Positions 1,175 through 22,065 of a stretch of DNA of 32,000 bases are shown here, piece after piece; the first letter of the stretch is position 1; every line of letters starts with the position of its first letter. The DNA comes from Kineococcus radiotolerans SRS30216 = ATCC BAA-149 (lineage in GTDB: Bacteria > Actinomycetota > Actinomycetes > Actinomycetales > Kineococcaceae), in NCBI RefSeq assembly GCF_000017305.1, contig NC_009664.2, positions 2,310,001 to 2,342,000 of the forward strand, given 5' to 3'. The notes under the pieces are model-generated. The model was not told where the DNA came from, ran no database searches, and worked only from the letters and a program-made list of their open reading frames with translations. A program made the translations under genes and the position numbers.

Positions 1175-1215
1175 GCTGGGGTTCGCCTCTCAGATCACGG
1201 TCGTCGTGTCGTCTC

Positions 1216-1229
1216 GTTCCACGTGGAAC
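1216..1229. other. parS-like perfect palindrome GTTCCACGTGGAAC in the 64-nt gyrB-gyrA spacer
   Basis: Read directly. It has two symmetric mismatches to the canonical parS core GTTTCACGTGAAAC. Both half-sites equal the GTTCCAC half-site used by the other parS sites in this window. Confidence 0.5.
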
Positions 1230-1238
1230 ATCGACCTG

Positions 1239-3299
1239 TCACACGTCGAGGAACCTCACGTCGCGGGCGTTGCGCTGGATGAAGCTGCGGCGCGACTCCA
1301 CGTCCTCGCCCATGAGGACCGAGAACACCGCGTCGGCCGCGGCGGCGTCCTCGAGGGTCACCTGCAGCAGCGTGCGGTGGGCGCGGTCCATCGTGGTCTC
1401 GGACAGCTCGTCCCAGTTCATCTCGCCCAGACCCTTGTACCGCTGGGTCTTGCCCTCCTTGGGCAGCTTCTTGCCCGCCGCGAGACCGGCCTCCATGAGC
1501 GCGTCGCGCTCGCGGTCGGAGTAGGCGAACTCGTGCGCGGCCCCGCCCATCCACTTGATCCGGTACAGCGGCGGCTGCGCCAGGTACACGTGGCCGTTCT
1601 CCACCAGCGGGCTCATGTAGCGGAACAGCAGCGTCAGCAGCAGCGTGCGGATGTGCTGACCGTCCACGTCCGCGTCGGCCATGATGATGATCTTGTGGTA
1701 CCGGAGCTTCTCGAGGTTGAACTCCTCGCCGATGCCGGTGCCGAAGGCGGTGATGAGGGCCTGCACCTCCTGGTTGCCCAGGGCACGGTCCAGGCGGGCC
1801 TTCTCCACGTTGAGGATCTTGCCGCGGATCGGCAGGATCGCCTGGGTGCGCGGGTCGCGGCCGCGGGTGGCCGAACCGCCCGCGGAGTCGCCCTCGACGA
1901 TGAACACCTCGCACTCGGCGGGGTTGTTGGACTGGCAGTCCTTCAGCTTGCCCGGCAGCGAGTTGCGCTCCAGCAGCGACTTGCGGCTCGCCTCGCGCGC
2001 CTTGCGGGCGGCCTGGCGCGCGACCGAGGCCGAGTGCGCCTTCTTCGCGATCTGGTAGGCCTCCTTGGGGTTGGAGGCGAACCAGTGCCCGAGGTGCTCG
2101 CGCACCTGGGCGTTCACGTAGGTGCGGGCGGAGGTGTTGCCCAGCTTCGTCTTCGTCTGGCCCTCGAACTGCGGCTCGGACAGCTTCACCGAGATGATCG
2201 CCGTGAGGCCCTCGCGGATGTCGGACCCCTCGAGGGTGTCGTTCTCCTTGAGCAGCGCCGGCTTCGCGGCCCGGGCGTACTCCTGGACCAGCGAGGTCAG
2301 CGCCGTCCGGAAGCCCGTCTCGTGCGTCCCGCCCTCGGTGGTGTTGATGGCGTTGGCGAAGGTGAAGACCGTCTCGGAGTACGCCGTCGTCCACTGCATG
2401 GCGACCTCGAGGGAGATCCCCTGCTCGGTGTCCTCGGCCTCCAGGCTGATGATCGAGTCGTGCAGCGGCTCGTTCTTCTTCAGCGAGTTCACGTGCTTCA
2501 CGTAGTCCACGAGACCGCCGTCGTAGCGGTAGGTGACGTCGCGCAGCGGCTTCGCGTCGGTGGACTCGTCCTCGACCTCGTCCTCCACGACGCGCTCGTC
2601 GCTCAGGGAGATCGTCAGGCCCTTGTTGAGGAAGCACGTCTGCTGGAAGCGGGTGCGCAGGGTCTCGAAGTCGAAGACGGTCGTCTCGAACGTCTCGGGG
2701 CTGGGCCAGAACGTGATCGAGGTGCCGGTCTCGCCGGTCTCCTCGCCCTTCTCCAGCGGCGCCACCGGGACGCCGCCCTCGAAGGACTGCCGCCACACGT
2801 GGCCCTGCCGCCGGACCTCGACGTCGACGCGGCGCGAGAGCGCGTTGACGACGGAGATGCCGACGCCGTGCAGGCCGCCGGAGACGGAGTAGCCGCCGCC
2901 GCCGAACTTGCCGCCGGCGTGCAGGACGGTGAGCACGACCTCGAGGGCGGAGCGCCCCTCCCCGGGCATGATGTCGACGGGGATGCCGCGGCCGTTGTCG
3001 ACGCAGCGCAGCCCGCCGTCGGCCAGCATCGTCACGGCGATGGTGTCGCAGTACCCCGCGAGCGCCTCGTCGACGGAGTTGTCCACGACCTCGTAGACGA
3101 GGTGGTGCAGCCCGCGCTCGCCGGTCGAGCCGATGTACATGCCGGGGCGCTTGCGCACCGCCTCGAGACCCTCGAGGACGGTGATCGCGTCGGCGCCGTA
3201 CTCCGGGCGCGGGGTGCCGTCGGGTGCCACCGCGTCGGCCAGCGACGGTGCGTCCTCGGGGCTGGTGTCCTCGGGACCGGGCGTCTCTTGGTCTGGCAC
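1239..3299 (-). CDS. gyrB: DNA gyrase subunit B
   Basis: ORF 1239..3524(-) carries the GHKL N-box [17 protein letters not shown], the Toprim [20 protein letters not shown] and the C-terminal [13 protein letters not shown]. Start is set at GTG 3299-3297 (VPDQETPG...), which has GGAGGGA 11 nt upstream. The 75 codons upstream are Arg-rich with low GC3. Confidence 0.93.
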
Positions 3300-3582
3300 G
3301 AGCGGGTGTGCTCCCTCCGCGTCGAGGCGACCGGTCGGGCAACGGGGCACGGACGTTCGGGCCCGTGTCCGCCAGTCTTGATCAGAGGAAGCTTCGATCG
3401 ACGACGAAGGCCCTACGACCGCCAGGTTCGTGTCCCAGTGTACCCCGCGCGGGCCGTGATCTCGCGCTGCGCGGCCCCTAGCGCGCTCCTGAGCGGTTCG
3501 ACCCCCCCGGGTGTGGGGGACCACGCGCGGGCACCCCGGCCGGGTGCACGCGAAACCTGGGCCGTCGGACGGGCCCGGGACG

Positions 3583-4236
3583 CTACCCGTAGGTGTCGCG
3601 CGGTCCCCGCCCGCCGGGGGCGGAGCGCCCGCCCTTGCGCCACGAGGGCCCCTGCGGGCCCCGGACGACGACCTTCGTCACGACGCCGTGGCCCAGCTCC
3701 TCGTCCAGGCGCCGGACGAGGTGGCTGGTGAGGAGGCGGACCTGGGTGGCCCAGGCCGTGGACTCCGCGCGCACCACCAGCGTCCCGTCCTTGAGCGTCT
3801 CGGGGGTGCAGTGCCCGGCCAGCTCGGGGCCGACGACGACGTCCCAGCGCCCGAACGCCCCGCCGACGGCGACCGGCCGCTCCCAGCCGCGCTCCCCCAC
3901 CAGGCGCCCCAAGGTGGAGTCCAGCGACTGCGGGTCGCGGGCGTCGGGGTGGGCCCCGGAGCGGGTGGACCCCCCGCCCCGCCGGGCCTCGCGCCACTCC
4001 TCGCGGGTCTGCTTGCCGCCCAGCGGCACCTGCCCCGGCCGCAGCCCGCGGGCCGCGGCCGCGGCCCGGGCCCGGCCCAGGGCGGTGCGCGCGAGGTCGG
4101 CCCCGATCGACCCGTCGTCGTCCTCGGGCCCGTCCCCGGGGTCCTGCCCCGGCTCGCCGGCGGCGTCGGGGTCCTCCCTGGGCCCGGCCGCCCCCGGCGG
4201 CTCAGTCACCGCGGACCGCCGCGCCGGAGGTGACAT
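3583..4236 (-). CDS. dciA: DUF721 / DciA-like protein (helicase-operating factor family), conserved between recF and gyrB in Actinobacteria
   Basis: ORF 217 aa. It occupies the position of M. tuberculosis Rv0004. The C-terminal core [69 protein letters not shown] is typical of DUF721. The start is uncertain: ATG 4236 overlaps recF by 35 nt, and GTG 4209 overlaps the recF stop by 8 nt. Confidence 0.75.
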
Positions 4237-5377
4237 GCACCCGGTCGGTGTGCTCCCCGCGCAGCGCGGCGGGGACGTCCTCGGGCACCGCGGCGGTCAC
4301 CAGCACCTGCTCGGCGTCGGCGACGACCTCCGACAGCCGTTCGCGCCGGCCCGCGTCGAGCTCGGCGAAGACGTCGTCGAGCACGAGCACCGGCCCGCCG
4401 GGGTCGTCCACCTCGTCGTCGGCCAGCAGCAGCCGGTAGCTGGCCAGCCGCAGGCCCAGCGCGACCGACCAGCTCTCCCCGTGGCTGGCGTAGCCCTTGG
4501 CGGGCATCCCGCCCAGGGTGAGGACGAGGTCGTCGCGGTGCGGGCCCACGAGGCACACCCCGCGGTCCAGCTCGCTCTTGCGCTGCTCGAGCATCGAGGC
4601 CAGCAGCGCCTCCCGCAGCGCGTCCCGGGTGGGGGCCTCCCCGCCCGGGGTGGTGGCCACCCCCTCCGCGAGCAGGGGCAGGCTGGAGCGGTAGCCCAGC
4701 TCCAGGTCGCCCTGCCCACCGCTGACCGCCCGGTAGGCGGAGTCGGTGGGCGAGCGCAGGTCCGCCAGCAGCGCCAACCGGGCCGACAGCAGCTCCGCCC
4801 CCGTCGTGGCCAGGTGCTCGTCCCACACGTCGAGGGTGTGGGTGTCCGCCCGGCCCGAGCGCATCGCCGACCCGGCCGACTTCAACAGGGCCGTGCGCTG
4901 GCGCAGGATCCGGTCGTAGTCGGCCCGCACCCCGGCGATCCGCGGCCACCGGGTGACCAGCAGCTCGTCGAGGTAGCGGCGGCGCTCCCCGGGGTCGCCC
5001 TTGACCAGGGCGAGGTCCTCGGGGGCGAAGAGCACCGTCCGCAGCACCCCGAGCACGTCGCGGGTCCGGCGGACCGGGTTGCCGTTGAGCCGGGCCCGGT
5101 TCGCCTTCCCCGGGGTGATCTCCAGCTCGACCAGCGCCCGGCGCCCGCCGCGCTCCAGCTGCGCCCGCACCACGGCGCGCTCCGCTCCCTGCCGCACCAG
5201 CGGGGCGTCACCGGAGACCCGGTGGCTGCCCAGCGTCGCGACGTACCCGATGGCCTCGACCAGGTTGGTCTTGCCCTGCCCGTTCAGGCCGACGAAGGTC
5301 GTCGTCCCCGGACGCAGGTCCAGCTCGAGGGTCGGGTACGAGCGGTAGTCGACGAGCGAGAGGTGCGCGACGTGCAC
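4202..5377 (-). CDS. recF: DNA replication and repair protein RecF
   Basis: N-terminus [21 protein letters not shown] plus Walker [14 protein letters not shown], with a C-terminal [10 protein letters not shown] signature. GTG at 5377 was chosen (7 nt after the gnd stop) rather than the track start at 5443. Confidence 0.92.
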
Positions 5378-5384
5378 GCGGGGG

Positions 5385-6299
5385 TCAGCTGTTCGTGGAG
5401 CCCGTGCCCGAGGTGGGCCCGGCCTGCGCGACGGCGTGACCACCGAACTGGTTGCGCAGCGCGGCGACGGCCTTGATGGAGGGGGAGTCCTCCTGGCGGG
5501 AGGAGAAGCGGGCGAAGAGGGCCGCGGCGAGGACGGGCATGGGGACCGCGTTCTCGATGGCCTGCTCCAGGGTCCAGCGACCCTCGCCGGAGTCCTGCGC
5601 GTAGCCGCGGATGTTGTCCAGCTTGGGGTCCTCCTCGAGGGCGCGGACCATGAGGTCCAGCAGCCAGGAGCGGACGACCGTGCCGCGGGTCCAGGCCTTG
5701 AAGACGGCGGGGACGTCGTGGATGATCCCCTTCGCCTCCAGCAGCTCGTAGCCCTCGGCGTAGGCGTGCATCAGGCCGTACTCGATGCCGTTGTGGACCA
5801 TCTTCGAGTAGTGGCCCGCCCCGACGCCGCCGGCGTGGACGAAGCCCTCCTCGCGGGGGCCCTCCGGGCGCAGCGCGTCGAAGATCGGCATCGCCAGGTC
5901 GACGTGGCCCTTGGAGCCGCCGACCATCAGGCCGTAGCCGTTGTCCTTGCCCCACACGCCGCCGGAGACGCCGCAGTCCATGTAGCCGGTGCCGCGCTCG
6001 GCGAGGAGCTTGGAGTTGATCTCGTCGTCGGTCCACTTGGAGTTGCCGCCGTCGATGACCAGGTCGCCGTCCTTGAGCAGCGGCGCCAGGTTCGCGACGG
6101 TGTCGCGGGTGATCTTGCCCGAGGGGACCATCACCCAGACGATCTTGGGCGAGGGCAGCGCCTCGACCAGCGCAGCCAGGGACGGGACGTCGGTGACGTC
6201 GGGGTTCGGGTCGTACCCGGTGACCTCGATGCCCTTGTCGCGGAGGCGGGAACGCATGTTCCCGCCCATCTTGCCCAGACCCACGAGACCGATGTGCAT
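5385..6299 (-). CDS. gnd: 6-phosphogluconate dehydrogenase, decarboxylating (short ~300-aa form)
   Basis: [15 protein letters not shown] Rossmann N-terminus, with GNSKWTDD and CGVSGGVWG motifs. It has the same dnaN-gnd-recF placement as in Streptomyces (remembered synteny). Confidence 0.85.
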
Positions 6300-6357
6300 C
6301 CTGACGCTTCCCTTCTCGCGCCCGGCTCTCGCACCGGGCTCTGTGGACGTACCGGGC

Positions 6358-7485
6358 TCAGCCGGCCAGCCGGACCGGCATCAGCAGGTACCGGTAGCTG
6401 TCGTCGTCGTCCCCGTCGAGGTCCGCCTGGCCGGTGAGGACCGCCGGGCGGGTCGACTGGGTGAACGACAGGCGGGCGAACGGGGCGGCCAGCGCCCCGA
6501 GCCCGTCGAGCAGGAACTGGGGGTTGAAGGCGATGGCGATGGACTCGCCGACGAGCGCGGCCTCGAGGGCCTCCGTCGCCTGCGCGTCCTCGCCCTGGCC
6601 CGCCTCCAAGGAGAGCACGCCGTCCTCGAACCGCAAGCGCACGGGTGTGTTGCGCTCGGCGACCAGGGCCACCCGCTTCACGGCCTCGGTCAGGGCGGCG
6701 GTGGAGACGACGGCGTGGGTGGGGGACTCGGCCGGGAACAGGGCCCGCACCTTCGGGTACTCCCCGTCGACCAGCAGCGAGGTCGAGTACCGCCCGCCGG
6801 CCTGGAAGCCGATGAGGTCGCTCTTGCCGTCGGCCATGGCCATCGTGAGCATGCTCGAGGAGCCCAGGGACCGGGCCACGTCGGACAGCGTCCGGGCCCG
6901 GACGAGGGCCACGGCGGAGATGTCGGGGCTGCTGGGGTTCCAGCGCAGCTCCCGCACCGCGAGCCGGTAGCGGTCGGTGGCCAGCAGCGTCAGCCGGTCG
7001 CCCTCGATCTCCATGCGGACGCCGGTGAGGATCGGCAGCGTCTCGTCGCGGCTGGCCGCGACCGTGACCTGGGCGACGGCCTCGGTGAACTCCGCCCCGG
7101 GCAGCTCCCCGGAGGAGTCCGGCAGCGTGGGCAGGGCGGGGTACTCCTCGACCGTCATCGTCAGGAGCGTGAAGCGGCTCGCGCCGCAGGTCACGACGAC
7201 CTTGGAGCCCTCGGTGGTGAGCGTCACCGGCCGGTTGGGCAGGCTGCGCGAGATGTCGGCGAGGAGGCGGCCCGAGACGAGGACGCGCCCGGCGGTGCGC
7301 ACGTCGGCGGGGAGCTCGACCCGCGCGGACACCTCGTAGTCGAAGGTGGACAGCTTCAGCGTGCCCTCGTCGGTGGCCTCGAGGAGGACACCGGCCAGCA
7401 CGGGGACGGGCGGCCGCGAGGGCAGGGCCCGGGCCGCCCACGCGACGGCGTCGGCCAGCACGTCGCGCTCGACCTGCAACTCCAC
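6358..7485 (-). CDS. dnaN: DNA polymerase III beta sliding clamp
   Basis: VELQVERDVLADAVAWAARALPSRPPVPVLAGVLLEA... ends in YLLMPVRLAG. Start is set at GTG 7485, which has GGGAAGG 9 nt upstream. ATG 7509 is an alternative. The track start at 7743 would run through DnaA boxes. Confidence 0.92.
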   Translation of the reverse strand: MELQVERDVLADAVAWAARALPSRPPVPVLAGVLLEATDEGTLKLSTFDYEVSARVELPADVRTAGRVLVSGRLLADISRSLPNRPVTLTTEGSKVVVTCGASRFTLLTMTVEEYPALPTLPDSSGELPGAEFTEAVAQVTVAASRDETLPILTGVRMEIEGDRLTLLATDRYRLAVRELRWNPSSPDISAVALVRARTLSDVARSLGSSSMLTMAMADGKSDLIGFQAGGRYSTSLLVDGEYPKVRALFPAESPTHAVVSTAALTEAVKRVALVAERNTPVRLRFEDGVLSLEAGQGEDAQATEALEAALVGESIAIAFNPQFLLDGLGALAAPFARLSFTQSTRPAVLTGQADLDGDDDDSYRYLLMPVRLAG

Positions 7486-8318
7486 CAGGCACCGCCTTCC
7501 CTCGAGCATCCGTCGTCCCGCCGTCGACAGGCGGGGCGGCTCCCGACAGTAGTGGAGACCGCCGCGCGGGGTGCACGCGCCTCCACAGCGACCGGCCCCG
7601 TGCACCGCTGCGTCCACCGCGGCGGGCTCCGTCCGCGTCGTCGCTCTCCGTGACCAGAGCGTCGGGGACGGCGCACAGCTTGTTCGAACGCGACGGGTCT
7701 CCCCCACGGCTCCTCGGTCCTCAGGGCTGCCCGTCCCCACCACCAGTCCACAGTGGACGTGGGTTGACGAACTTCACCGTAGAGGGGTCCATCGTCGTAG
7801 TAGCCCTTGTGCACGCTGTGGACAACCCGGTGTCGTCGCAGGTCAGAGGCGGTTCGCCCCCTGTTCCGTGGTGTGGACGGCCTGAGGACCCGTCGACCCC
7901 GTCGTCCACAGGGAGGTGGAGCGCGCCGCCGCTGTCCACCGCCGTCCCCAGGCGCCTGCTGCGGGATCCACCCGTTGTCCACCGAGTTGTCCACCGCTGA
8001 GGACATCTTTGTCCACATGGCTGTCCCCAGCGTGTGGACAACTGTGGAGAAGTGTTCGGACGGGCCGGGAGGAGGCCGTCGGGACCGCCCGCGAGGCGGT
8101 GCCGCGGCCCGCGGTGGGGTGTGGTGCGCCGGGGAGCGGGCGGGCTGCCCCAGGGCCCTGGACGGGCTCTTGACGGGCCCTCGACGGGCCGGTGACGGGC
8201 GTGCGGAGGCGTTCCCGGGGATCGACCACCCGGGACGTGTTCACCGGGACGGTCGGCTCACGGCCCGTCGGCGGGACGACCTCGTCGTCACCCCGCCGGC
8301 CGGTCCCCCGGAGGGGGC
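7486..8318. other. oriC: Chromosomal origin of replication oriC (dnaA-dnaN intergenic DnaA-box cluster)
   Basis: Matches to the actinobacterial DnaA box TTGTCCACA were read directly. Perfect 9/9 boxes: 7817-7825(-), 8009-8017(+), 8033-8041(-). 8/9 boxes: 7902-7910(+), 7975-7983(+), 7987-7995(+), 8043-8051(-). 7/9 boxes: 7744-7752, 7807-7815, 7872-7880(-), 7932-7940. Position between dnaA and dnaN is canonical. Confidence 0.9.
8161..8200 (+). repeat. Four direct GACGGGC repeats at an exact 11-bp step inside oriC
   Basis: GACGGGC starts at 8161, 8172, 8183 and 8194 (ctgGACGGGCtct tGACGGGCcct cGACGGGCcgg tGACGGGCgtg). Confidence 0.7.
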
Positions 8319-9875
8319 TCAGGCCCCGGACTGCTTCTTGATGCGGTTGGTCAGCTCGGTGACCTGGTTGTAGGTGCTGCGCCGCTCGGCCATCTGCTGC
8401 TTGATCTTGCGCTCGGCGTGCATGACGGTCGTGTGGTCGCGGCCGCCGAAGTGCTGCCCGATCTTCGGCAGGGACAGCTCGGTGAGCTCGCGGCAGAGGT
8501 ACATGGCGATCTGGCGCGCGGTGACCAGGGTGCGCGAGCGGGACGTCCCGCACAGGTCCTCCAGCGTGACGCTGAAGTAGGACGCCGTCTGCCCCATGAT
8601 CGCCGCCGCGGTGATCTCCGGGGTCTCCTCGTTGGGGATGAGGTCGCGCAGGACGATCTCGGCCAGCTGCATGTCGACGGGCTGGCGGTTGAGGCTGGCG
8701 AACGCCGTCACGCGGATCAGCGCGCCCTCCAGCTCCCGGATGTTCGAGGAGATCTTGGAGGCGATGTACTCGTTGACGTCGTCGGGGACCTCGAGGCGCT
8801 CGCCGATCGCCTTCTTGCGCAGGATCGCGATGCGGGTCTCGAGGTCGGGGGGCTGGACGTCGGTGATGAGGCCCCACTCGAAGCGGCTGCGCATCCGCTC
8901 CTCGAACCCGGACAGCTGCTTCGGCGGCAGGTCGGAGGTGATGACGACCTGCTTGCTCGCGTTGTGCAGCGTGTTGAAGGTGTGGAAGAACTCCTCCTGC
9001 GTCTGGACCTTGTTCGACAGGAACTGGATGTCGTCGATGAGCAGGACGTCCACGTCGCGGTGCCGGCGCTGGAACGCCTGGGCCTTGTCGTCGCGGATGG
9101 AGTTGATGAAGTCGTTGGTGAACTCCTCGGAGTTCACGTACCGCACCTGCACCCCGGGGTAGAGGTTCTGCGCGTAGTGGCCGATCGCGTGCAGCAGGTG
9201 GGTCTTGCCCAGCCCGGACTCCCCGTAGATGAACAACGGGTTGTACGCCTTGGCCGGGGCCTCGGCGACGGCCACCGCGGCGGCGTGCGCGAAGCGGTTG
9301 CTGGCGCCGATGACGAAGGTCTCGAAGATGTACTTCGGGTTCAGCCGGGAGTTCTCGATCCTGGTCGTGGGGCGCCGCGGCTGCCGGCCCGTCCCCGGAC
9401 CGCGGTCCACCTTGTACCCGGTGAACAGCAGGTCCGGGTCGGAGTCGTCGAGGGGGGAGTCCTCCTCGAGCGAGCCGGAGCGCCGCTCGTCCAGGTGCAG
9501 CCCGTCGTCGCCGTCGAGACCGGTGAGGACCGAGCCGCGCTCCCGCTCCACGCTCGGCACGCTGCCGACGCCCCCGGAGTGCTCCCCGGTCCGTTCCGGG
9601 GTGAGCACCTGCCCGATGGAGGGGTCGACCGTGACCGCGAGGCGGATGGGCGAGCCGTAGGCCTCCGACAGCGCCCTCGTCAGCGGTTCGCGGACCTTCT
9701 GCTCGATGACGTCCTTGGTGAGGTCGTTCGGCACCGCGAGCAGGGCCGTGCCGTCGAGCAGGCCCAGGGGTCGGGTCAGGCGCACGAACGCCCGCTGGTG
9801 CTGAGTGACACCGTCGTCCAGTTGCGCCAGCGCGCGCTCCCAGACGCTGGGGAAGTCCCCTCCGTCGGTCTCCAC
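8319..9875 (-). CDS. dnaA: Chromosomal replication initiator protein DnaA
   Basis: Walker [16 protein letters not shown], box VII/sensor motifs, and a C-terminal HTH ([20 protein letters not shown]). Start is set at GTG 9875 ([19 protein letters not shown]), which has GGGAGAGGG 5 nt upstream. The 78 codons upstream are Arg/Pro-rich junk. Confidence 0.93.
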
Positions 9876-9915
9876 TCGAGCCCTCTCCCGTCGTACCGGA
9901 TCCGTCCGACGGGTC

Positions 9916-9947
9916 CCGTCCACACCCCTGTCCACAGCTGTGGAGGA
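9916..9947. promoter_or_regulatory. DnaA-box pair/palindrome 41-72 nt upstream of the dnaA start (probable autoregulation site)
   Basis: CCGTCCACA at 9916-9924, CTGTCCACA at 9928-9936, and inverted TGTGGAGGA at 9939-9947. Positions 9931-9944 form the perfect 14-bp palindrome TCCACAGCTGTGGA. Confidence 0.6.
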
Positions 9948-10261
9948 CGAGGGGATGCGCGAGATGACCGTCGCAGCACCTCGAGGCGGGTGCGGGCGTC
10001 GGTACGTCGAGCGGGACCGTAACAACGGCGACCGCCACCGTTCAAGTGGCGGCCTCCCAGACGACGTCCGGCCGCTACGCCGCGCCGGTCCCTGCGGGCC
10101 GGGCGGCACCGTTCGAGGACCGCGGCCGCAGCGGGGCGTCTCCCACCGGACCTGGGACGAACGCTACCTTCCTCCCGTCACCCGCACAGCCCCGTCGCCG
10201 GGGCTGTGGACGGCTGGAAGGGGCCCGACACCCCCGGAGCCGGGGTCCGTGCCCGCGCGCT

Positions 10262-10291
10262 TTGACCCGGGTCGGTCCGGGACCGTACTCT
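10262..10291 (+). promoter_or_regulatory. Candidate housekeeping-type promoter for the rpmH-rnpA-yidD-yidC operon
   Basis: TTGACC (10262-10267), an 18-nt spacer, then TACTCT (10286-10291, fits TANNNT), ~100 nt upstream of the rpmH GTG. Confidence 0.45.
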
Positions 10292-10389
10292 GCTGGGGAT
10301 TGTGCTCCGCATCGCCGCCCGTCCCGGTCGTCCGGGTCACGGTCCGGCAGTCCGGCGGGGCCCGCCCGCACGAGTCCTGGAGTTCTGAC

Positions 10390-10527
10390 GTGAGCAAGCG
10401 CACCTTCCAGCCGAACAACCGTCGTCGCGCCAAGGTGCACGGTTTCCGTCTCCGCATGCGCACCCGCGCCGGCCGCGCCATCCTCTCGGCGCGTCGCACC
10501 AAGGGCCGCGCCCAGATCTCGGCCTGA
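10390..10527 (+). CDS. rpmH: 50S ribosomal protein L34
   Basis: [45 protein letters not shown] (45 aa). GTG 10390 has GGAG 7 nt upstream. It is the tail of track ORF 9805..10527. Confidence 0.95.
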
Positions 10528-10546
10528 CGCCGCTCCCCCAGCCCGC

Positions 10547-10909
10547 GTGCTGTCCGCGGAGCACCGCCTTCGCCACAAGGACGACTTCACCGTCGCCCTG
10601 AAGAACGGTGCGCGTGCTGGGACCCGCCGCCTGGTCCTGCACTGGGCGGTGACCGACCGAGCCCACCCCACCCGGGTGGGCTTCGTCGTGTCCAAGGCCG
10701 TGGGGGGTTCGGTCGTCCGGCACCGCACGCAGCGCCGGTTGCGCCACGTCGCCGCCGGACGGCTGACCACCCTGCCCGCCCTGGGCGGTCTGCTGGTCGT
10801 CCGCGCCCTCCCGGCGGCCGGGACGGCCACGTCGGCCGAACTGGCGGTCGACGTCGACCGCGGGCTGCGGCGGCTGGGTCTGGTCGCCACCGGCGCCGGT
10901 GATGGCTGA
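10547..10909 (+). CDS. rnpA: Ribonuclease P protein component
   Basis: 120 aa and basic, with [13 protein letters not shown]...[24 protein letters not shown] (RNR-like motif). Canonical position after rpmH. Confidence 0.9.
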
Positions 10910-11177
10910 CCGTCGCCCGTGGCACCCGCTGCGCTGGCCGGCGCTGCTGCTGGTGGGCCTGGTCCGGGTCTACCAGCTCCTCGTGTCGCCCCTGCTGGGG
11001 CCGACCTGCCGCTTCTACCCCTCGTGCTCCGCCTACGCCGTCGAGGCGCTGAGGACGCGCGGTGCTCTCGTCGGGACCTGGCTCGCCGTCCGACGACTCT
11101 TCCGCTGCCACCCGTGGAACCCTGGTGGAGTGGACCCCGTTCCGCCGAAGGGCCACTCGCGGGTGAAGGCCCCGTGA
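10899..11177 (+). CDS. yidD: Membrane protein insertion efficiency factor YidD
   Basis: [35 protein letters not shown]...[17 protein letters not shown] is the YidD signature. It overlaps the rnpA end by 11 nt. Confidence 0.9.
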
Positions 11178-11208
11178 GCCCGACCCCTGTGAGAGGACAA
11201 ACCGCACG

Positions 11209-12222
11209 ATGATCGACTTCTTCTACGACCTGCTCTACCCCATCCAGTGGGTGGTCGCGTGGATCATGGTGCGCTTCCACGACGCCCTCACCTTCGTCGG
11301 CCTCGACCCCGCCGGCGGCGCGGCGTGGTCGCTCTCGATCGTCGGCCTGGTGGTCGTGATCCGCATCCTGCTGATCCCGCTCTTCGTCAAGCAGATCAAG
11401 GCCATGCGCGGGATGCAGGTCATCCAGCCCGAGATGCGCAAGATCCAGGCGAAGTACAAGGGCAAGAACGACCCGGCCAGCCGCCAGGCCATGCAGCAGG
11501 AGATGATGGCGCTCTACCGCGAGTCGGGCACCAACCCGATGGCGAGCTGCCTGCCGATCCTGCTCCAGTCCCCCATCTTCCTGGCGCTGTTCCACACCCT
11601 GAACGGCATCGGCAAGGGCGAGACGGTCGGCCCGCTGGACCGCACCCTGGTCGACCAGGCCGACAACGCGACGATCTTCGGCTCGCAGCTGTCGGACATC
11701 TTCATGAAGTCGTGGTCGACGGGCGAGTGGAACACGATCATCCTCACCGCGGTGATGATCGTCCTGATGTCGCTGTCGCAGTTCGTCACGCAGAAGCAGC
11801 TGATGGCGAAGAACACCTCCTCGGCGTCGATGGAGGGCAACCCCTTCGCGCAGCAGCAGAAGATGATGCTGTACATCCTCCCGGTCATCTTCGCGGTCTC
11901 CGGCGTCAACTTCCCCATCGGTGTCCTCCTCTACTGGCTCACCACGAACGTCTGGTCCATGGGCCAGCAGTTCTTCGTGATCCGGCGCATGCCGAACCCC
12001 GGTTCGCTCGCCGAGAAGGAGCTCCAGGAGCGCAAGGCTCGTCGTGCCGCCCGTCGCGGCCAGGTCCTGACCACCGACACGAGCGCGCCCGCGGTGGGCA
12101 CGACGGCCGAGCACACGACGAACGCTCCGGCCCGTCGTCAGCGTCAGCAGCCCAAGCGCGGGGCCAGCCGGGAGCAGCGACGCCCGGGCGGCCCGCGCTC
12201 CAGCCAGGGCCCCAACCGCTGA
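11209..12222 (+). CDS. yidC: Membrane protein insertase YidC/Oxa1 family
   Basis: 337 aa, with ILLIPLFVKQIKAMRGMQVIQPEMRKIQAKYKGK...NPMASCLPILLQSPIFLALF, multiple TM segments and a basic C-tail. Confidence 0.92.
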   Translation: MIDFFYDLLYPIQWVVAWIMVRFHDALTFVGLDPAGGAAWSLSIVGLVVVIRILLIPLFVKQIKAMRGMQVIQPEMRKIQAKYKGKNDPASRQAMQQEMMALYRESGTNPMASCLPILLQSPIFLALFHTLNGIGKGETVGPLDRTLVDQADNATIFGSQLSDIFMKSWSTGEWNTIILTAVMIVLMSLSQFVTQKQLMAKNTSSASMEGNPFAQQQKMMLYILPVIFAVSGVNFPIGVLLYWLTTNVWSMGQQFFVIRRMPNPGSLAEKELQERKARRAARRGQVLTTDTSAPAVGTTAEHTTNAPARRQRQQPKRGASREQRRPGGPRSSQGPNR

Positions 12223-12264
12223 CCACCCCCAGAGCCAGCTCCACAGCCAGACCCAGGAGGACGT

Positions 12265-12861
12265 GTGAACGACACGACGGAAGCGCTCGAGGCGACCCCG
12301 GCGGACGAGACCGAGGCCACCGACGCCCCCAGCGCCGACGAGGCCCCGAAGCGCGGGACGTCGAAGTCCCGGCTCGAGGAGGAGGGCGACATCGCCGCCG
12401 ACTACCTCGAGGAACTGCTGGACATCGTCGACCTCGACGGGGACATCGACATCGACATCGAGAACGGCCGCGCGTCCGTGGCCATCGTGGCGGACGAGCC
12501 CGGGACGCCGGCGCTGTCGCGGCTCGTCGGGCCCGACGGGGAGGTCCTCGAAGCCCTCCAGGAGCTGACCCGCCTCGCCGTCCAGGCCCAGACCGGGGAC
12601 CGGACCCGCCTCATGCTCGACGTCGCGGGTCACCGGCTCACCAAGCGCGGTGCCCTGGTCCGCCTGGCGGGCGAGGTGGTGGCCCGCGTGCGCACCAGCG
12701 GGGCGGCCGAGCGCCTGGACCCGATGCCGGCCTTCGAGCGCAAGGTCGTCCACGACGCGGTTGCCGCGGCCGGTCTGCTCAGCGAGTCGGAGGGCGAGGA
12801 GCCCCACCGTCGGGTCGTCGTGCTGCCGGCGGCGCTGGACCCCCAGGAGAGCAGCGACTGA
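12265..12861 (+). CDS. jag: Jag/KhpB-type KH + R3H RNA-binding protein
   Basis: 198 aa. AGGAGG lies 4 nt before GTG 12265. It has an acidic N-terminus and a C-terminal R3H-like segment LDPMPAFERKVVHDAVAAAGLLSESEGEEPHRRVVV. Canonical yidC-jag-rsmG order. Confidence 0.85.
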   Translation: MNDTTEALEATPADETEATDAPSADEAPKRGTSKSRLEEEGDIAADYLEELLDIVDLDGDIDIDIENGRASVAIVADEPGTPALSRLVGPDGEVLEALQELTRLAVQAQTGDRTRLMLDVAGHRLTKRGALVRLAGEVVARVRTSGAAERLDPMPAFERKVVHDAVAAAGLLSESEGEEPHRRVVVLPAALDPQESSD

Positions 12862-17199: not shown

Positions 17200-17526
17200 T
17201 CAGCCGATGAAGTCGCCGAGCTCCTTGAGCAGCACGGGCTTCGGGCGGGCGCCGATGACGGTCTTGACGACCTCGCCGCCGGAGTAGACGTTCAGCGTCG
17301 GGATCGACGTCACGCCGTACTTCGCCGCGATCCGCGGGTTCTCGTCGGTGTTCACCTTCACCACGGTGATCTTGTCGCCGTGCTCGGCGGCGATCTCCTC
17401 GAGGATGGGGGCGACCTGGCGGCACGGGCCGCACCAGGGGGCCCAGAAGTCCACGAGGACGGGCTTGTCGGACTGCAGGACCTCGGCGTCGAAGGTGTCG
17501 TCGGTGACGGGAGCGGTGCTGCTCAC
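17200..17526 (-). CDS. trxA: Thioredoxin
   Basis: 108 aa, [40 protein letters not shown] (WCGPC active site). GTG 17526 has GGAGG 7 nt upstream. It is only the tail of track ORF 17200..18663. Confidence 0.93.
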
Positions 17527-17552: not shown

Positions 17553-18593
17553 TCAGGCCCGCGGCTGCGGGCGGTCGGTGGTCTCGGAGTCCGGGACGTC
17601 CGGGGTCTCGGTCTCCTCGCGGGCCGGCTGCGCGTCCAGGCCGGCGTCGCCGCGGGCGGCGAGGTACTTCTCGGCGTCCAGGGCGGCGGAGCAGCCCATC
17701 CCGGCGGCGGTGATGGCCTGCATGTACTCGTGGTCGACGACGTCGCCCGCGGCGAACACCCCGGGGACGTTGGTGCGGGTGCTGCGGCCCTCGACGAGGA
17801 CGAAGCCGTTCTCGTCCAGGTCGACCTGCCCCTTCACGAGGTCGGTGCGCGGTTCGTGGCCGATGGCGATGAACAGCCCCGTCGCCGGGATCTCGCGGGT
17901 CTCCCCGGTCACGGTGTCGCGCAGCGTGAGCCCCTCGACCTTGTCCCCGCCGAGGATGCCGGTGACCTCGGAGTTCCAGGCGAAGCGGATCTTCGGGTTG
18001 TCCTCGGCGCGCTTGCGCATGATCCGCGAGGCGCGCAGTTCGTCGCGGCGGTGCACGATCGTCACGGTGCGGGCGAAGCGGGTGAGGAAGGTGGCCTCTT
18101 CGACCGCGGAGTCCCCGCCGCCGACGACGACGATGTCCTGCTCGCGGAAGAAGAACCCGTCGCAGGTCGCGCACCAGCTGACCCCGCGCCCGGAGAGGCG
18201 CTTCTCGTCGGGCAGGCCGAGCTGGCGGTACGCCGAGCCCAGGGCGAGGATCACGGCGTGGGCGCGGTACGTCTCGCCGCCACCGGTCACGACCTCCTTG
18301 ACGTCGCCCTCGAGGCGGACGTCGACGACGTCGTCGGTGATCAGCTCGGCGCCGAACCGCTCGGCCTGCTGACGCATGTTGTCCATGAGGTCCGGGCCGA
18401 GGATCCCCTCGGGGAACCCGGGGAAGTTCTCGACCTCGGTGGTGTTCATCAGCGCACCGCCGGCGGTCACCGACCCCTCGAAGACCAGCGGCCGCAGCTC
18501 CGCGCGCGCGGCGTACAGGGCCGCGGTGTACCCCGAGGGGCCCGAACCCACGACGATGACGTTGCGGATCTCGTTCGTGGTGACGTCGCTCAC
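17553..18593 (-). CDS. trxB: Thioredoxin-disulfide reductase
   Basis: FAD motif [19 protein letters not shown], redox-active CATCDG, NADPH motif [13 protein letters not shown] and GVFAAGDV. It has a ~35-aa acidic C-terminal tail. Confidence 0.93.
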
Positions 18594-18661
18594 CTGTGCG
18601 GCCTGCTTCCTCGGTCGGTGCCCACCCCGTGGTCACGGGGCTCGGGCGGTGCTGCCTCTTC

Positions 18662-18687
18662 AACCGATCGTAGGGGTGCGCTGTTCC
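18662..18687 (-). promoter_or_regulatory. ECF (SigH/SigR-type) promoter candidate upstream of trxB-trxA
   Basis: The minus strand reads GGAAC (18687-18683), exactly 18 nt, then GTT (18664-18662). The remembered SigR/SigH consensus is GGAAT-N18-GTT, and trxBA is a classic target. It lies ~70 nt upstream of the trxB GTG. Confidence 0.5.
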
Positions 18688-18711
18688 CGTCGCCGACCCC
18701 CCGGGCGGGCG

Positions 18712-19494
18712 TCAGGAGCCGGCGGGGAGGGGGACGTCCACCCGGCTGTACGCGGCGTCGCCGGGGACGCAGTCCAGGGCCACGACGACGACCTCGGCCC
18801 CGTCCCCGCTGCGGTGCACGACGAGCGCGGCGGGGACGGTGCGCCAGCTGGCGATCTCCACCGCGAGCACCGAGACCGGGTCCACCCCGAGGCTCTTCGT
18901 GCAGGCCAGGGCCCGCTCGGCGACCGGGCGCTGGGCCGGGTCGCTCGTGGCGGACGCCTCCCCCGAGGGGGCCTTGAGCAGGGTCCGGCCGGGGGCGGTC
19001 GCGTCGGTGCCGCTGGTGGCGTCCGGGGCCCTCCCACCGCCACCCGTGGCCTCCGCGGCCTCCTCCTCCAGGGTCTCCTCGGCGAGGTCCTCCACCGCCG
19101 CGGCGTCGGTGTAGTCCCGGCCGCTGACCAGCACCCTCGCCTCCGGCGGGGCCGCCACGTCCACGGCGGCGGAGTCCGCGGCGCTGGAGCCGCTGGCGCT
19201 GTCGGAGGAGGGTTCGTGCTGCACGGCGAGGACGGCCCCGCCGCCGATGACCAGGATCCCCGCGGCGGCGGTGAGCAGCCGCGGCAGGCGCGGGCGGCGG
19301 CGACGGGCGGCCAGCGACGCGACGGGGGTGTCCGCGCGGGCCGCGGCGAGGGCGGCGTCGAGGCGGGCCACGACGTCGTCGGGGACCGGTCCGACGTCGG
19401 CGGCGGCGCGCAGCAGGGCGCGGACGCGCTGCTCCTCGGGGCTCAGCGGCTCCTCGGCCCCGTCCCCGGCGTTCCCGCCGAACGTCTCGCTCAC
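18712..19494 (-). CDS. Single-pass membrane anti-sigma factor candidate (RsmA/RstA position)
   Basis: 260 aa. It has a short cytoplasmic N-domain, RRRRPRLPRLL followed by the TM segment TAAAGILVIGGGAVLAV, and an extracytoplasmic C-domain. GTG 19494 has GGGAGGAGG 6 nt upstream. It lies immediately downstream of the ECF sigma and upstream of trxB, as in M. tuberculosis and Streptomyces. No ZAS HxxxCxxC motif was seen. Confidence 0.65.
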   Translation of the reverse strand: MSETFGGNAGDGAEEPLSPEEQRVRALLRAAADVGPVPDDVVARLDAALAAARADTPVASLAARRRRPRLPRLLTAAAGILVIGGGAVLAVQHEPSSDSASGSSAADSAAVDVAAPPEARVLVSGRDYTDAAAVEDLAEETLEEEAAEATGGGGRAPDATSGTDATAPGRTLLKAPSGEASATSDPAQRPVAERALACTKSLGVDPVSVLAVEIASWRTVPAALVVHRSGDGAEVVVVALDCVPGDAAYSRVDVPLPAGS

Positions 19495-19868
19495 CGCGGA
19501 CCTCCTCCCGTCTCCCGTGCTCGGCCGGTTCGCGCCCGACCCGTTCGCGCCCGACCCGTTCGCGCCCGACCCGTTCGCGCCCGACCCGTTCGCGCCCGAC
19601 CCGTTCGCGCCCGACCCGTTCGCGCCCGACCCGTTCGCGCCCGACCCGTTCGCGCCCGACCCGTTCGCGCCCGACCCGTTCGCGCCCGACCCGTTCGCGC
19701 CCGACCCGTTCGCGCCCGACCCGTTCGCGCCCGACCCGTTCGCGCCCGACCCGTTCGCGCCCGACCCGTTCGCGCCCGACCCGTTCGCGCCCGACCCGTT
19801 CGCGCCCGACCCGTTCGCGCCCGACCCGTTCGCGCCCGACCCGCAGTACGACGTGGTGCGGCGTTCAA
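19491..19868 (-). CDS. Hypothetical repeat-encoded Arg-rich peptide, LNAAPRRTA-(GRART)x21-GRAR-ETGGGPR, 125 codons (speculative)
   Basis: TTG 19868-19866 overlaps the sigma stop TGA 19867-19865 (TTGA). The stop TGA 19493-19491 overlaps the anti-sigma GTG 19494-19492 (GTGA). The diverged copy ACC GGC CGA GCA CGG differs from the unit ACG GGT CGG GCG CGA only at wobble positions and still encodes TGRAR. Caveats: the TTG start is rare, and all six frames are open across the repeat. Confidence 0.3.
   Translation of the reverse strand: MNAAPRRTAGRARTGRARTGRARTGRARTGRARTGRARTGRARTGRARTGRARTGRARTGRARTGRARTGRARTGRARTGRARTGRARTGRARTGRARTGRARTGRARTGRARTGRARETGGGPR
19528..19842. repeat. Perfect tandem repeat: 21 copies of a 15-bp unit (plus GTTCGCGCCCGACCC / minus GGGTCGGGCGCGAAC)
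   Basis: Read directly. Four consecutive 60-nt sequence lines are identical, and unit starts fall at 19528+15k for k=0..20. A diverged extra copy lies at 19515-19529. The repeat fills most of the 370-nt gap between the sigma stop (19865) and the anti-sigma start (19494). Confidence 0.97.
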
Positions 19869-20467
19869 CGGTTCCCCGGCCCGCCGAGGAGCTCCGCCAG
19901 CGCCGCCCGCCCGCGCGAGCAGCGGGACTTCACCGTGCCCACTGCGACGTCGAGGATCGCGGCGGCCTCGGCGACCGGCACGTCGTACATGTCGACGAGC
20001 ACCAGCGCCGCCCGCTGCGCCTCCGGCAGCCGCGCCAGGGCGCTGGTCACGTCGAGGGCCGTCTCCACGTGCGGGGTGGCGTCCTCGGCGACGGCCAGGG
20101 CGGCCCCGGTGCGGGCGCTCTCCTCCCCGCCGGGACCGACCTCCTCCTCCAGGGGGCGCGTGGGGCGCACCGCCCGGCGCCGGGCCCGGTCCAGGCAGGC
20201 GTTGACGACGATGCGGTGCAGCCACGTCGTGACCGCGGACTCGCCGCGGAAGCGGCCGGCGGCCCGCAGCGCCGAGACGAGGGCGTCCTGGAGGGCGTCG
20301 GCGGCCTCCTCCCGGTCGCCCGTGGTGCGCAGCGCCACCGCCCACAGCCGGTCGCGGTGGCGGCGCACGACCTCCCCGAACGCCTCCGGGTCCCCCGCCA
20401 CGTGCGCGGCGAGGAGCTCCGCGTCGCTGCGCGGGTCCACCGGCGCGCCGGGGCCCGCCGGGGTCAC
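19865..20467 (-). CDS. ECF-type RNA polymerase sigma-70 family factor (SigM/SigT-like by synteny)
   Basis: 200 aa. Region 2: DALQDALVSALRAAGRFRGESAVTTWLHRIVVNACLD. Region 4 HTH: LPEAQRAALVLVDMYDVPVAEAAAILDVAVGTVKSRCSRGRAAL. GTG 20467 overlaps the pseudokinase stop (GTGA). It is only the tail of track ORF 19865..22666. Confidence 0.88.
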   Translation of the reverse strand: MTPAGPGAPVDPRSDAELLAAHVAGDPEAFGEVVRRHRDRLWAVALRTTGDREEAADALQDALVSALRAAGRFRGESAVTTWLHRIVVNACLDRARRRAVRPTRPLEEEVGPGGEESARTGAALAVAEDATPHVETALDVTSALARLPEAQRAALVLVDMYDVPVAEAAAILDVAVGTVKSRCSRGRAALAELLGGPGNR

Positions 20468-22065
20468 GGGGCCTGCGGGGTCGGCGGGGTCGGTGCCTGC
20501 GGGGCCGCGACGGTCCCCGTGACGGCGACCTCCGCGACGCTCGCGCGGAACACGCCGTCCGTGGTCGGCAGCTGCGTGAACCACAGGACCAGGTAGCGGC
20601 TGCGGACCGGCTGCGGCGGCGTCAGCGCCTGCACGCCCCCGGCGGCCGCGGTCGCGACGGGCACCGACCCCTCCAGCGCGGGACCGGGGGCGGTGAGCAG
20701 CGACACCGACCCGCCCTCCCCGCCGGCGGTCAGCTGCACGCCGGTGACGTCGGCCTCCGCCCCGAGGTCGAGGAGGAGCCCCATGCCGTCCTTGAGCCCG
20801 CCGAAGGCCGCCGAGTTGTACCGCTGGCTCTCCCACGCCGTGGCCGGGTCGCCGTCGACCGCCCGCGGCGCCGTCTCGGAGGACTCCCCGCCCCCCTGCG
20901 GGTCCAGCGCGGAGACCACCGCGACGGGCAGCACGGCGGGTGCGGGGGGCGGGGTGCTCGGGGTGGCGGTGGGCGCCGGGGCGCTGCTCGGGGCCGGAGC
21001 GGGGGTCGTCGCCGCGGGCGCGCTCGCGGCCGCGGTGCCGGGGATGGCGGGCACGCTGATCCGGCTGAGCTGCCACAGCGCGAGCACCAGCCCCACCACG
21101 ACGACCGCCCCGACGATGGCGAGCACGAAGCGGGAGTCGTCGCGCGGGGGACGGGCCGTGGGGTGCGGGCGGGTGAACGGGACGGGCGGCTCGGCCTCCG
21201 GCACCACCTCGTCGCGGTTCTTCAGCCGGCCCCGGAACTCCCGCGTCGCGGCCTCGCCACGCATCCGGCGCAGGGTCTCCTCCCAGGGCGCCATCGTCCA
21301 CGGCGCCAGCTGCAGGGCCAGCTCCGCCGGATCGCGCGGACCGTCCTCGTGGGGCCCGAACGTCACGCTGCACAGGGTGTCCAGGTCGTTCGGCACGTCG
21401 GGACGGATGTCCTTGGGCGGCAACGGTTTCCCGTCCGCCGTGGGGGACTGCGGCAGACCGTCGTGCGGGGCTGTCCCCTCCAGCGCGGGCCAGCGGGCCA
21501 CGAGCCCGGCGTAGACGAGCGCGACGAGCCCCACGGCGTCGGCGCGGTTGGCGAGCGCCGCGGCCCGGGCCGGCGACACCGCCGGCGGGTCGACCTCCAG
21601 GGCCGCCTCGACGCCCACGCCCCGGACCCGGACGACCCCGTCGGGACCGAGAACCACGTCGTCGGGGGTCAGCCGGGTGTGGTGCAGCCCGCGCCGGGCG
21701 GCGACGTCCAGGGCGCTGGCGACCTCGCCGACCAGCGCCCGCACGGCGGCCGGCTTCAGCGGGCCGGTGCTCAGCAGCTCGCCGAGGGACCGGCCCTCGA
21801 CGTGCTCCTCGACGACGAACACCGTGGGCGTCCCGCCGGGCTGGGCCGCGTCGGTGCCGGCGTCGAGGATGCGCGGGACGCGGGGATCGGTGAGCATGGC
21901 CGCGCGGCGGGCGGCGTCGAGGAACTCCTCGGCGCGGGGGTCGGCGGCGGGCAGGGTGCGGACCCGGACCGGCCGGTCCAGCGTGAGGTCGCGGCCGCGG
22001 AACTCGCGGGTGCCCGACCCCGCGGCCACCGGCAGCTCCCGGTCCAGGGCGTAGCGGTCGGCCAC
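20464..22065 (-). CDS. Pseudokinase (degenerate Ser/Thr kinase fold) - TM - extracellular carbohydrate-binding-like domain; equivalent to the C-terminal half of M. tuberculosis MviN/Rv3910
   Basis: 533 aa with kinase-like spacing but dead motifs: no GxGxxG (AAGSGTREFRG), VRVRTL instead of VAxK, HHTRLTPDDV instead of HRDxKxxN, and VRGVG instead of DFG. The TM segment is FVLAIVGAVVVVGLVLALW, followed by a Pro/Ala/Thr linker and a C-domain with DGDPATAWES (discoidin/CBM-like). Confidence 0.8.
   Translation of the reverse strand: MADRYALDRELPVAAGSGTREFRGRDLTLDRPVRVRTLPAADPRAEEFLDAARRAAMLTDPRVPRILDAGTDAAQPGGTPTVFVVEEHVEGRSLGELLSTGPLKPAAVRALVGEVASALDVAARRGLHHTRLTPDDVVLGPDGVVRVRGVGVEAALEVDPPAVSPARAAALANRADAVGLVALVYAGLVARWPALEGTAPHDGLPQSPTADGKPLPPKDIRPDVPNDLDTLCSVTFGPHEDGPRDPAELALQLAPWTMAPWEETLRRMRGEAATREFRGRLKNRDEVVPEAEPPVPFTRPHPTARPPRDDSRFVLAIVGAVVVVGLVLALWQLSRISVPAIPGTAAASAPAATTPAPAPSSAPAPTATPSTPPPAPAVLPVAVVSALDPQGGGESSETAPRAVDGDPATAWESQRYNSAAFGGLKDGMGLLLDLGAEADVTGVQLTAGGEGGSVSLLTAPGPALEGSVPVATAAAGGVQALTPPQPVRSRYLVLWFTQLPTTDGVFRASVAEVAVTGTVAAPQAPTPPTPQAP

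Follow-up and report, generated by a model that had tools for sequence, protein, structure and literature searches.

What is a perfect array of 21 identical 15-bp repeats doing between the gene for an extracytoplasmic function (ECF) sigma factor and the gene for its anti-sigma factor, and is it a regulatory device or simply the product of replication gone astray? The question is posed by 32,000 nt of the Kineococcus radiotolerans SRS30216 chromosome (NC_009664.2, positions 2,310,001 to 2,342,000; this whole stretch is called the window here, and all coordinates are counted from its first letter), in which sigM and the rsmA-like anti-sigma-M gene lie 370 nt apart on the minus strand and the array takes up 315 nt of that gap (Table 1). 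The original prediction, made from the letters alone, had described this arrangement and proposed that it is a contingency or phase-variation element of an envelope/redox stress regulon. I will argue that the array is probably a non-coding, recently expanded variable-number tandem repeat (VNTR) of one K. radiotolerans lineage, which arose in the weakly constrained leader of rsmA, and I infer that it was born by slippage and is close to neutral. A literature search found no publication on tandem repeats in K. radiotolerans, and neither a typing scheme nor a publication for the array locus.

The description of the array was confirmed in every detail. Tandem Repeats Finder reports a tract at 19528-19843 with a period of 15, 21.1 copies, 100% matches, 0 indels and a score of 632, while a pattern search gives 21 exact matches to the unit in the 32-kb window and, with up to two mismatches allowed, no further site outside the array (0.98 expected from shuffles). 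The units abut without spacers, which ruled out a CRISPR (clustered regularly interspaced short palindromic repeats) array, and head-to-tail units with a period of 15 and 100% identity fall within the ~10-100 bp of VNTRs or minisatellites. GC skew over the array is -0.34. On the rsmA side, the unique leader holds a Shine-Dalgarno sequence, GGGAGGAGG, at 19509-19501, 6 nt ahead of the GTG start; the sequence GGAGACGGGAGGAGGTC(C/T)GCGGTG before rsmA is common to the window and two other Kineococcus loci (L026, L027), and in three more (L028-L030) only a GAGGAGG-type Shine-Dalgarno is kept ahead of the GTG.

The expansion is real and recent in this genome's lineage and isolates do differ in copy number, both as had been predicted. 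Further K. radiotolerans assemblies were recovered through exact-protein look-ups with TrxB and SigM, and one of them, GCA_014191015.1 (L001/L003), with flanking DNA 98.3-99.4% identical to the window, has exactly two units between identical flanks and a sigM-rsmA gap of 85 nt (L001). L001 is matched at 100% identity by a Logan k=31 contig (L004), which also spans the junction with two units and, since two units (30 nt) contain no repeated 30-mer and the k=31 graph therefore runs through them, the two-copy state is genuine and not a collapse of a longer array. A third lineage from an ENA metagenome (L025), ~99% identical to both others, has two units as well, and the 45-nt flanks of the array are identical in L001/L004 and L025. 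The contigs that are 100% identical to the window end in the array: L005-L008 stop 28-29 nt into it from the sigM side and L002 begins with 30 nt of it on the rsmA side, L006 being seen in 14 samples and L002 with 21 similar places. Such a break k-1 bases into the repeat is a cycle in a k=31 graph and needs at least three units, which answers the concern that the array might be an artefact. No repeat was found in five other Kineococcus species or populations (L026-L030, 80-85% DNA identity) nor in L031, the repeat-free spacers of other Kineococcus measure 51-71 nt, and no array stands at the sigM-rsmA junction in any other of the 110 loci compared. Copy number thus varies between strains, 21 against two, at one locus with conserved flanks and, given two copies in both other lineages and none in other species, the most parsimonious account is that two is the species-ancestral number and that one lineage expanded to 21. 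As a practical matter, k=31 assemblies of this strain break systematically at the array, where L002 (15.5 kb) starts; 35 of the 50 collection blocks with the TrxB protein have contigs of 10-20 kb. Mutation-accumulation lines of K. radiotolerans have been made (Long et al. 2018, cited in PMC6604790), and the runs SRR5887052 to SRR5887294 may belong to them.

The unit appears to be derived from local spacer sequence and not imported. The spacer of L027 reads CGTCGTAGTGC-CGGTCGGGAAC-GGGAGACGGGAGGAGG and that of K. radiotolerans CGTCGTACTGC-(GGGTCGGGCGCGAAC)n-CGGCCGAGCAC-GGGAGACGGGAGGAGG, and L027 keeps GGTCGGGAAC at the place equivalent to the array. The unit also appears to be specific to this locus in the data examined: besides the absence of another copy in the window, a scan with 1.47 units against 185,579 species (one genome each) returned 16 unrelated places and none in Kineococcus, the window's own locus not being among those returned. 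Most of the 16 matches are single chance 22-mers in coding DNA. A few, in unrelated genomes, are degenerate arrays of the same 15-mer whose other strand codes for DPFAP/PDPFA peptide repeats (L018 3297-3405, in an open reading frame (ORF) of 959 amino acids; L022 3387-3490; L016 6058-6260), and in L022 (Actinomadura yumaensis) the array is seemingly inserted in an ORF that looks ClpP-like by eye. A different array, of 24 bp with 9.2 copies and 97% identity, lies at 3117-3336 of L038, ~480 nt downstream of a SigM-like gene and presumably inside the anti-sigma gene, and runs into the contig end.

Why should a spacer in this operon be free to grow such a repeat? The answer may lie in a second element, a SigM-type promoter-like motif on the sigM stop codon, GGAACCGTTGAACGCCGCACCACGTCGTA (in full GGAACCG-N15-CGTCGTA). 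In a junction alignment, all Kineococcus loci have GGAAC-N17-CGTC on the stop codon of sigM (GGG-AAC-CGT-TGA). Among 80 more distant SigM-like metagenome loci (L031-L110, 60-87% protein identity), 76 include the sigma stop, and GGAACC-N16-CGTC occurs in 72 of these, 44-143 nt ahead of that stop, against a background rate of 0.18 per kb per strand. The N17 spacing from GGAAC to CGTC is kept in 78 of 79 motif instances, and the A three bases past CGTC is invariant even though it was not part of the search pattern. The motif always has the same codon phase among the distant loci; the base ahead of GGAAC may be G, C or A, so the encoded residue is Gly or Arg while the GG bases stay fixed; and L026, whose sigma gene stops 13 nt earlier, keeps GGGGAACCGTTGA outside the coding sequence. 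Fixed DNA under a varying residue, together with a motif retained outside a coding sequence, argues for a constraint at the level of DNA and not of protein. An experimentally derived SigM binding site of Mycobacterium abscessus has the -35 element GGAACCG, which is said to match that of M. smegmatis (PMC13491425). The -35-like half of the window motif is identical to that published GGAACCG and is joined at fixed spacing to a conserved -10-like element, the published comparison concerning the -35 only (PMC13491425).

These sequence comparisons lead me to infer that rsmA is driven by a SigM-dependent promoter lying within the end of sigM, which would form a negative-feedback arm. The array begins 7 nt past the -10-like CGTC, about where +1 is expected, and from typical ECF promoter distances transcription is predicted to start at ~19842 +/-3 nt, which makes the array probably the 5' leader of the SigM-dependent rsmA transcript. 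No sigma-70 promoter or terminator pattern was found in 18400-20800. The adjacency of sigma and anti-sigma genes that the original prediction took as the norm is indeed the rule elsewhere, with a 4-nt stop/start overlap (ATGA/GTGA) in at least 47 of the 76 distant loci and an overlap of some kind in 70; where the genes overlap, the motif is inside the sigM tail and the leader of the putative rsmA transcript is coding sequence. The Kineococcus sigM ends on the -35 element itself, so that a leader of 51-71 nt is left free of coding constraint, and this is where the repeat arose; the motif in the sigM 3' end would thus explain the freely evolving spacer of the genus. The array widens, to the 370 nt seen here, a gap that Kineococcus already had, a point on which the original prediction needs correcting.

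The course of events that I favor would then begin with a pre-existing two-copy direct repeat, expanded by replication slippage or unequal recombination to 21 copies in this lineage only. The array would be transcribed in two ways, as intercistronic sequence in the sigM-rsmA read-through mRNA and probably as nearly the whole 5' leader of the SigM-driven rsmA transcript, the negative-feedback arm, whose leader would have grown from ~65 nt to ~350 nt. Its G-rich sense strand is predicted to fold into one long, self-contained hairpin. Orientation effects are known for structure-forming repeats and, given the position of the origin, the G-rich strand would be the nascent lagging strand, where such structure would favor expansion. 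Four units of the G-rich strand, taken as single-stranded DNA, have a predicted energy of -22.9 kcal/mol (z = -4.9), compared with z ~0 for the C-rich strand.

Would the growth of the leader alter the amount of RsmA? The sense RNA of the junction has a predicted energy of -240.6 kcal/mol (z = -6.25) and forms a single long, imperfect hairpin from array sequence only, to which each unit adds a self-contained stem of ~10 kcal/mol. Leaders with 0-30 units were modeled both from the predicted start site and as sigM read-through, and the mean unpaired probability from the Shine-Dalgarno to the start codon stayed at 0.55-0.585 in the former and at 0.425-0.445 in the latter. Occlusion of the ribosome-binding site by the array was rejected on these grounds. 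The original prediction had placed the array exactly where the ratio of sigma to anti-sigma is set, and this was broadly right in that the array, ~7 nt past a SigM-type -10-like CGTC, could matter there; the simplest route to such an effect, through access to the ribosome-binding site, is predicted to be unaffected. Since neither the promoter and the first transcribed bases nor the Shine-Dalgarno and the start codon change with copy number, an effect on RsmA dosage is most likely small or nil, and any that did exist would act through mRNA stability, processing or elongation and not through occlusion of the ribosome-binding site.

The reading of the original prediction, a contingency locus or rheostat, is the strongest competitor and even so an unlikely one. 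It holds that frequent and reversible gain and loss of units alters RsmA:SigM so that subpopulations differ heritably in the threshold of their SigM response. Copy numbers of two and 21 would suit it, as would the identity of all copies, which implies recent turnover, but the differences seen are between lineages only, and both other lineages stand at two copies, which fits a single expansion and not constant flux. The array does lie between a conserved SigM-type motif and the rsmA ribosome-binding site, where its ~10 kcal/mol of 5' structure per unit could act on the anti-sigma gene alone; however, copy number leaves unchanged the promoter spacing, the first transcribed bases and the predicted access to the Shine-Dalgarno, and the array is outside the promoter spacer and the ORFs. 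Repeats in 5' untranslated regions (5'UTRs) do tune expression of Haemophilus influenzae hmwA and Moraxella catarrhalis uspA2, but the target here is a cytoplasmic regulator and not a surface antigen, and the junction is without an array in the other loci of the set of 110. The phase-variation claim is thus unsupported. A more specific form, in which slippage makes leader length a heritable rheostat whose hairpin or G-quadruplex load, mRNA half-life or elongation sets the amount of anti-sigma made per SigM activity, is speculative and on balance improbable. If it were true, the strength of SigM feedback would vary among lineages or subclones of an actinobacterium that resists radiation and desiccation, and a contingency-type mechanism would have a regulator as its target in place of a surface antigen.

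Less likely again is that the array acts as a nucleic-acid structure element, a G-quadruplex or long hairpin serving as a roadblock to elongation, a former of R-loops, an RNase III site or a 5' stabilizer or, in a variant, a sequence whose C-rich antisense transcript is a Rho-loading site that blocks antisense transcription. The array has 42 GGG tracts, with spacings of 2 and 7 nt, and contains 10 of the 14 canonical G-quadruplex motifs (G3N2G3N7) on that strand of the window, and the two-copy form amounts to exactly one four-tract motif, but G-rich tracts are common at 74.5% GC and the G-quadruplex model of ViennaRNA gave no support to a G-quadruplex as the dominant fold, the hairpin still being favored everywhere but at the apex of the loop in the 21-copy form. 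The strength and strand asymmetry of the fold speak for such an element, and so does the skew noted above across the array; on the other side, 18400-20800 offers no U-tract or terminator-like site, and the absence of the array from relatives means that no function of this kind is conserved.

Three further explanations can be dismissed more quickly. That a real two-copy locus was mis-assembled as 21 is scarcely credible, for although perfect arrays are a classic product of assembly error and the sole other full-length assembly of the species has two copies, independent Illumina-based contigs identical to the window, from many samples, break off 28-30 nt after entering the repeat on either side, which is impossible with two copies at k=31, the two-copy strain assembles straight through at the same k, and the two-copy genomes differ by ~1% in flanking DNA and are therefore other strains. 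A coding repeat is equally far-fetched, whether read as (GSGAN)21 added to the N-terminus of RsmA or as a stretch added to SigM by read-through or frameshift: the period is a multiple of three, the array is in frame with rsmA, all five third-codon positions of the unit are G or C, no sense frame contains a stop and the 15-mer encodes DPFAP repeats on the other strand in unrelated genomes, but the stretch of 435 nt that runs from the in-frame stop at 19930-19932 to the GTG start at 19494 has none of ATG, GTG or TTG, a strong Shine-Dalgarno precedes that start and the anti-sigma proteins of relatives start at the same point, conspecific strains lack the expanded segment and would differ by 95 residues, and none of 35 homologues contains a (GSGAN)n segment. 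Hardly any room is left, finally, for a member of a dispersed intergenic repeat family, akin to mycobacterial interspersed repetitive units (MIRUs) or repetitive extragenic palindromic (REP) elements, that landed at sigM-rsmA, since for all that MIRUs sit intercistronically in operons including senX3-regX3, this unit is 15 bp and not 40-100 bp, seems locally derived, recurs neither in the window at up to two mismatches nor in Kineococcus in the genome-collection scan, and is accompanied by no small ORF bridging the stop and start codons. Rfam offered no family either, with nothing in the window reaching the gathering score and nothing at E<=1 in 19300-20000.

A near-neutral VNTR of one lineage remains the reading that I prefer, and several points weigh against it. 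All 21 copies are identical, in the rsmA frame and with 100% GC at third positions, which could hint at something beyond neutral slippage. The promoter activity and the transcription start are read from a motif, and across the whole window GGAAC-N16-18-CGTC shows no significant enrichment (4 matches, 1.8 expected), so that the case for a promoter is one of cross-species conservation only. The exact figure of 21 comes from a single reference assembly, short-read contigs proving at least three copies; the window locus is missing from the genome-collection scan, presumably because it was masked, so that coverage of the remaining K. radiotolerans genome by that scan is an assumption; and near-neutrality is judged from thermodynamic folding, which ignores kinetics, G-quadruplexes, RNases and transcription elongation.

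Even with these reservations, the locus provides a clean example of a very recent minisatellite expansion, from two copies to 21, in a high-GC actinobacterium, and the array is useful as a strain marker and a known break point in short-read K. radiotolerans assemblies. If copy number did modulate RsmA dosage, an ECF sigma/anti-sigma feedback loop would join the surface genes as a target of repeat-mediated tuning. Specialists in ECF factors may find the embedded SigM-type motif, a lead in its own right, more interesting than the array, since the presence of that motif near the sigM 3' end in ~95% of 76 diverse actinobacterial loci implies extra SigM-driven transcription of the anti-sigma gene alone.

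The genes on either side are well defined. The sigM product scores 264 bits against the NCBIfam SigM equivalog NF007225, whose cutoff is 190, and contains the Sigma70_r2 and r4_2 domains. For the anti-sigma protein there is a K. radiotolerans protein with 100% identity, and the match to the anti-sigma model NF052375 is weak (26.5 bits); the 35 homologues of the protein are all from Kineococcus or from metagenomic or assembly contigs, and most carry Pfam PF27063 RsmA_C. The gene order is murJ, a pseudokinase-like gene, sigM, rsmA, trxB, trxA and parBA, near oriC. Positions 1-12300 of the window are the replication-origin region, with gyrB, recF, a 6PGD-like gene and dnaN on the minus strand (gyrB, recF and dnaN at 1.2-7.7 kb), and a minus-strand ORF of 596 amino acids at 8.3-10.1 kb is probably dnaA, which would put the array locus ~10 kb away. 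The genes yidC, jag, gidB, parA and parB are on the plus strand, and the position of sigM-rsmA-trxBA on the minus strand near the origin means that their transcription runs head-on to the fork coming from it.

Table 1. Coordinates of the array, its flanking elements and the neighboring genes in the 32,000-nt window
Feature	Position	Strand	Remarks
Tandem array	19528..19842	minus	21 identical 15-bp units
Array unit			plus strand GTTCGCGCCCGACCC; sense (minus) strand GGGTCGGGCGCGAAC
SigM-type promoter-like motif	19847..19875	minus	GGAACC-N16-CGTCnnA; -35-like part overlaps the last sigM codons and TGA
Unique spacer, sigM stop to array	19843..19864	minus	22 nt; holds the -10-like CGTCGTA
Unique leader, array to rsmA start	19495..19527	minus	33 nt
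sigM, ECF sigma factor	19865..20467	minus	200 amino acids; TGA stop 19867-19865
rsmA-like anti-sigma-M gene	18712..19494	minus	260 amino acids; GTG start; homologues with RsmA_C
Promoter-like motif upstream of trxB	18660..18688	minus	GGGAAC-N18-GTTGA; in 6/6 Kineococcus loci compared
trxB	17553-18593	minus	Pfam Pyr_redox_2; downstream of rsmA
trxA	17200-17523	minus	Pfam Thioredoxin; downstream of rsmA

The original prediction had also placed the array upstream of trxBA, and these genes do follow on the same strand; trxB has, however, its own promoter-like motif, of the SigH/SigR type, so that trxBA need not rely on read-through and the array mainly concerns rsmA. A conserved GC-rich hairpin, GAGCCCCGTGACCACGGGGTGGGC, follows that motif in the trxB leader (18594-18690 in the window, and L026-L030). 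On the other side, the gene 5' of sigM (20464-22065, minus strand) overlaps the sigM start by 4 nt and has a weak F5/8 type C match; its product has 533 amino acids in the window lineage and L025 and 535 in L001/L004 (L001 2808-4415). Short imperfect tandem repeats occur at 20449-20515, across the 3' end of this gene and the start of sigM.

How does the array compare with systems that are already known? Its closest likeness is to the bacterial intergenic VNTRs or minisatellites used in multiple-locus VNTR analysis (MLVA) typing, with which it shares head-to-tail identical units of 10-100 bp, conserved unique flanks, copies that vary between strains and a presumed origin by slippage, whereas its place in an anti-sigma leader right after a putative ECF promoter is unusual among them. 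The MIRU of senX3-regX3 in the Mycobacterium tuberculosis complex is similar in being an actinobacterial variable tandem repeat between a co-transcribed regulatory pair. MIRUs, however, are 40-100 bp long, are dispersed at ~40 loci and contain short ORFs overlapping the neighboring stop and start codons, whereas this array has a unit of 15 bp, occupies a single locus in the data examined, and is set off from the sigM stop by 22 nt and from the rsmA start by 33 nt, with no small ORF overlapping either codon.

The 7-bp repeats of H. influenzae hmw1A/hmw2A and the AGAT repeats of M. catarrhalis uspA2 tune expression from the 5'UTR or from between promoter and coding sequence, and the likeness is that of a repeat tract between the transcription start, here a predicted one, and the ribosome-binding site, whose length could alter mRNA or translation while the promoter is unchanged. 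Those systems differ in their short units, frequent change within populations and measured effects on adhesins, while for the array the predicted accessibility of the ribosome-binding site is flat. Finally, the genes themselves belong with the mycobacterial SigM/RsmA and Streptomyces SigT/RstA systems, as seen from the SigM equivalog, the RsmA_C homologues, the gene neighborhood and the -35-like GGAACCG, and depart from the usual sigM-rsmA operon in that the 4-nt stop/start overlap has become a spacer of 51-71 nt in Kineococcus and of 370 nt in this strain.

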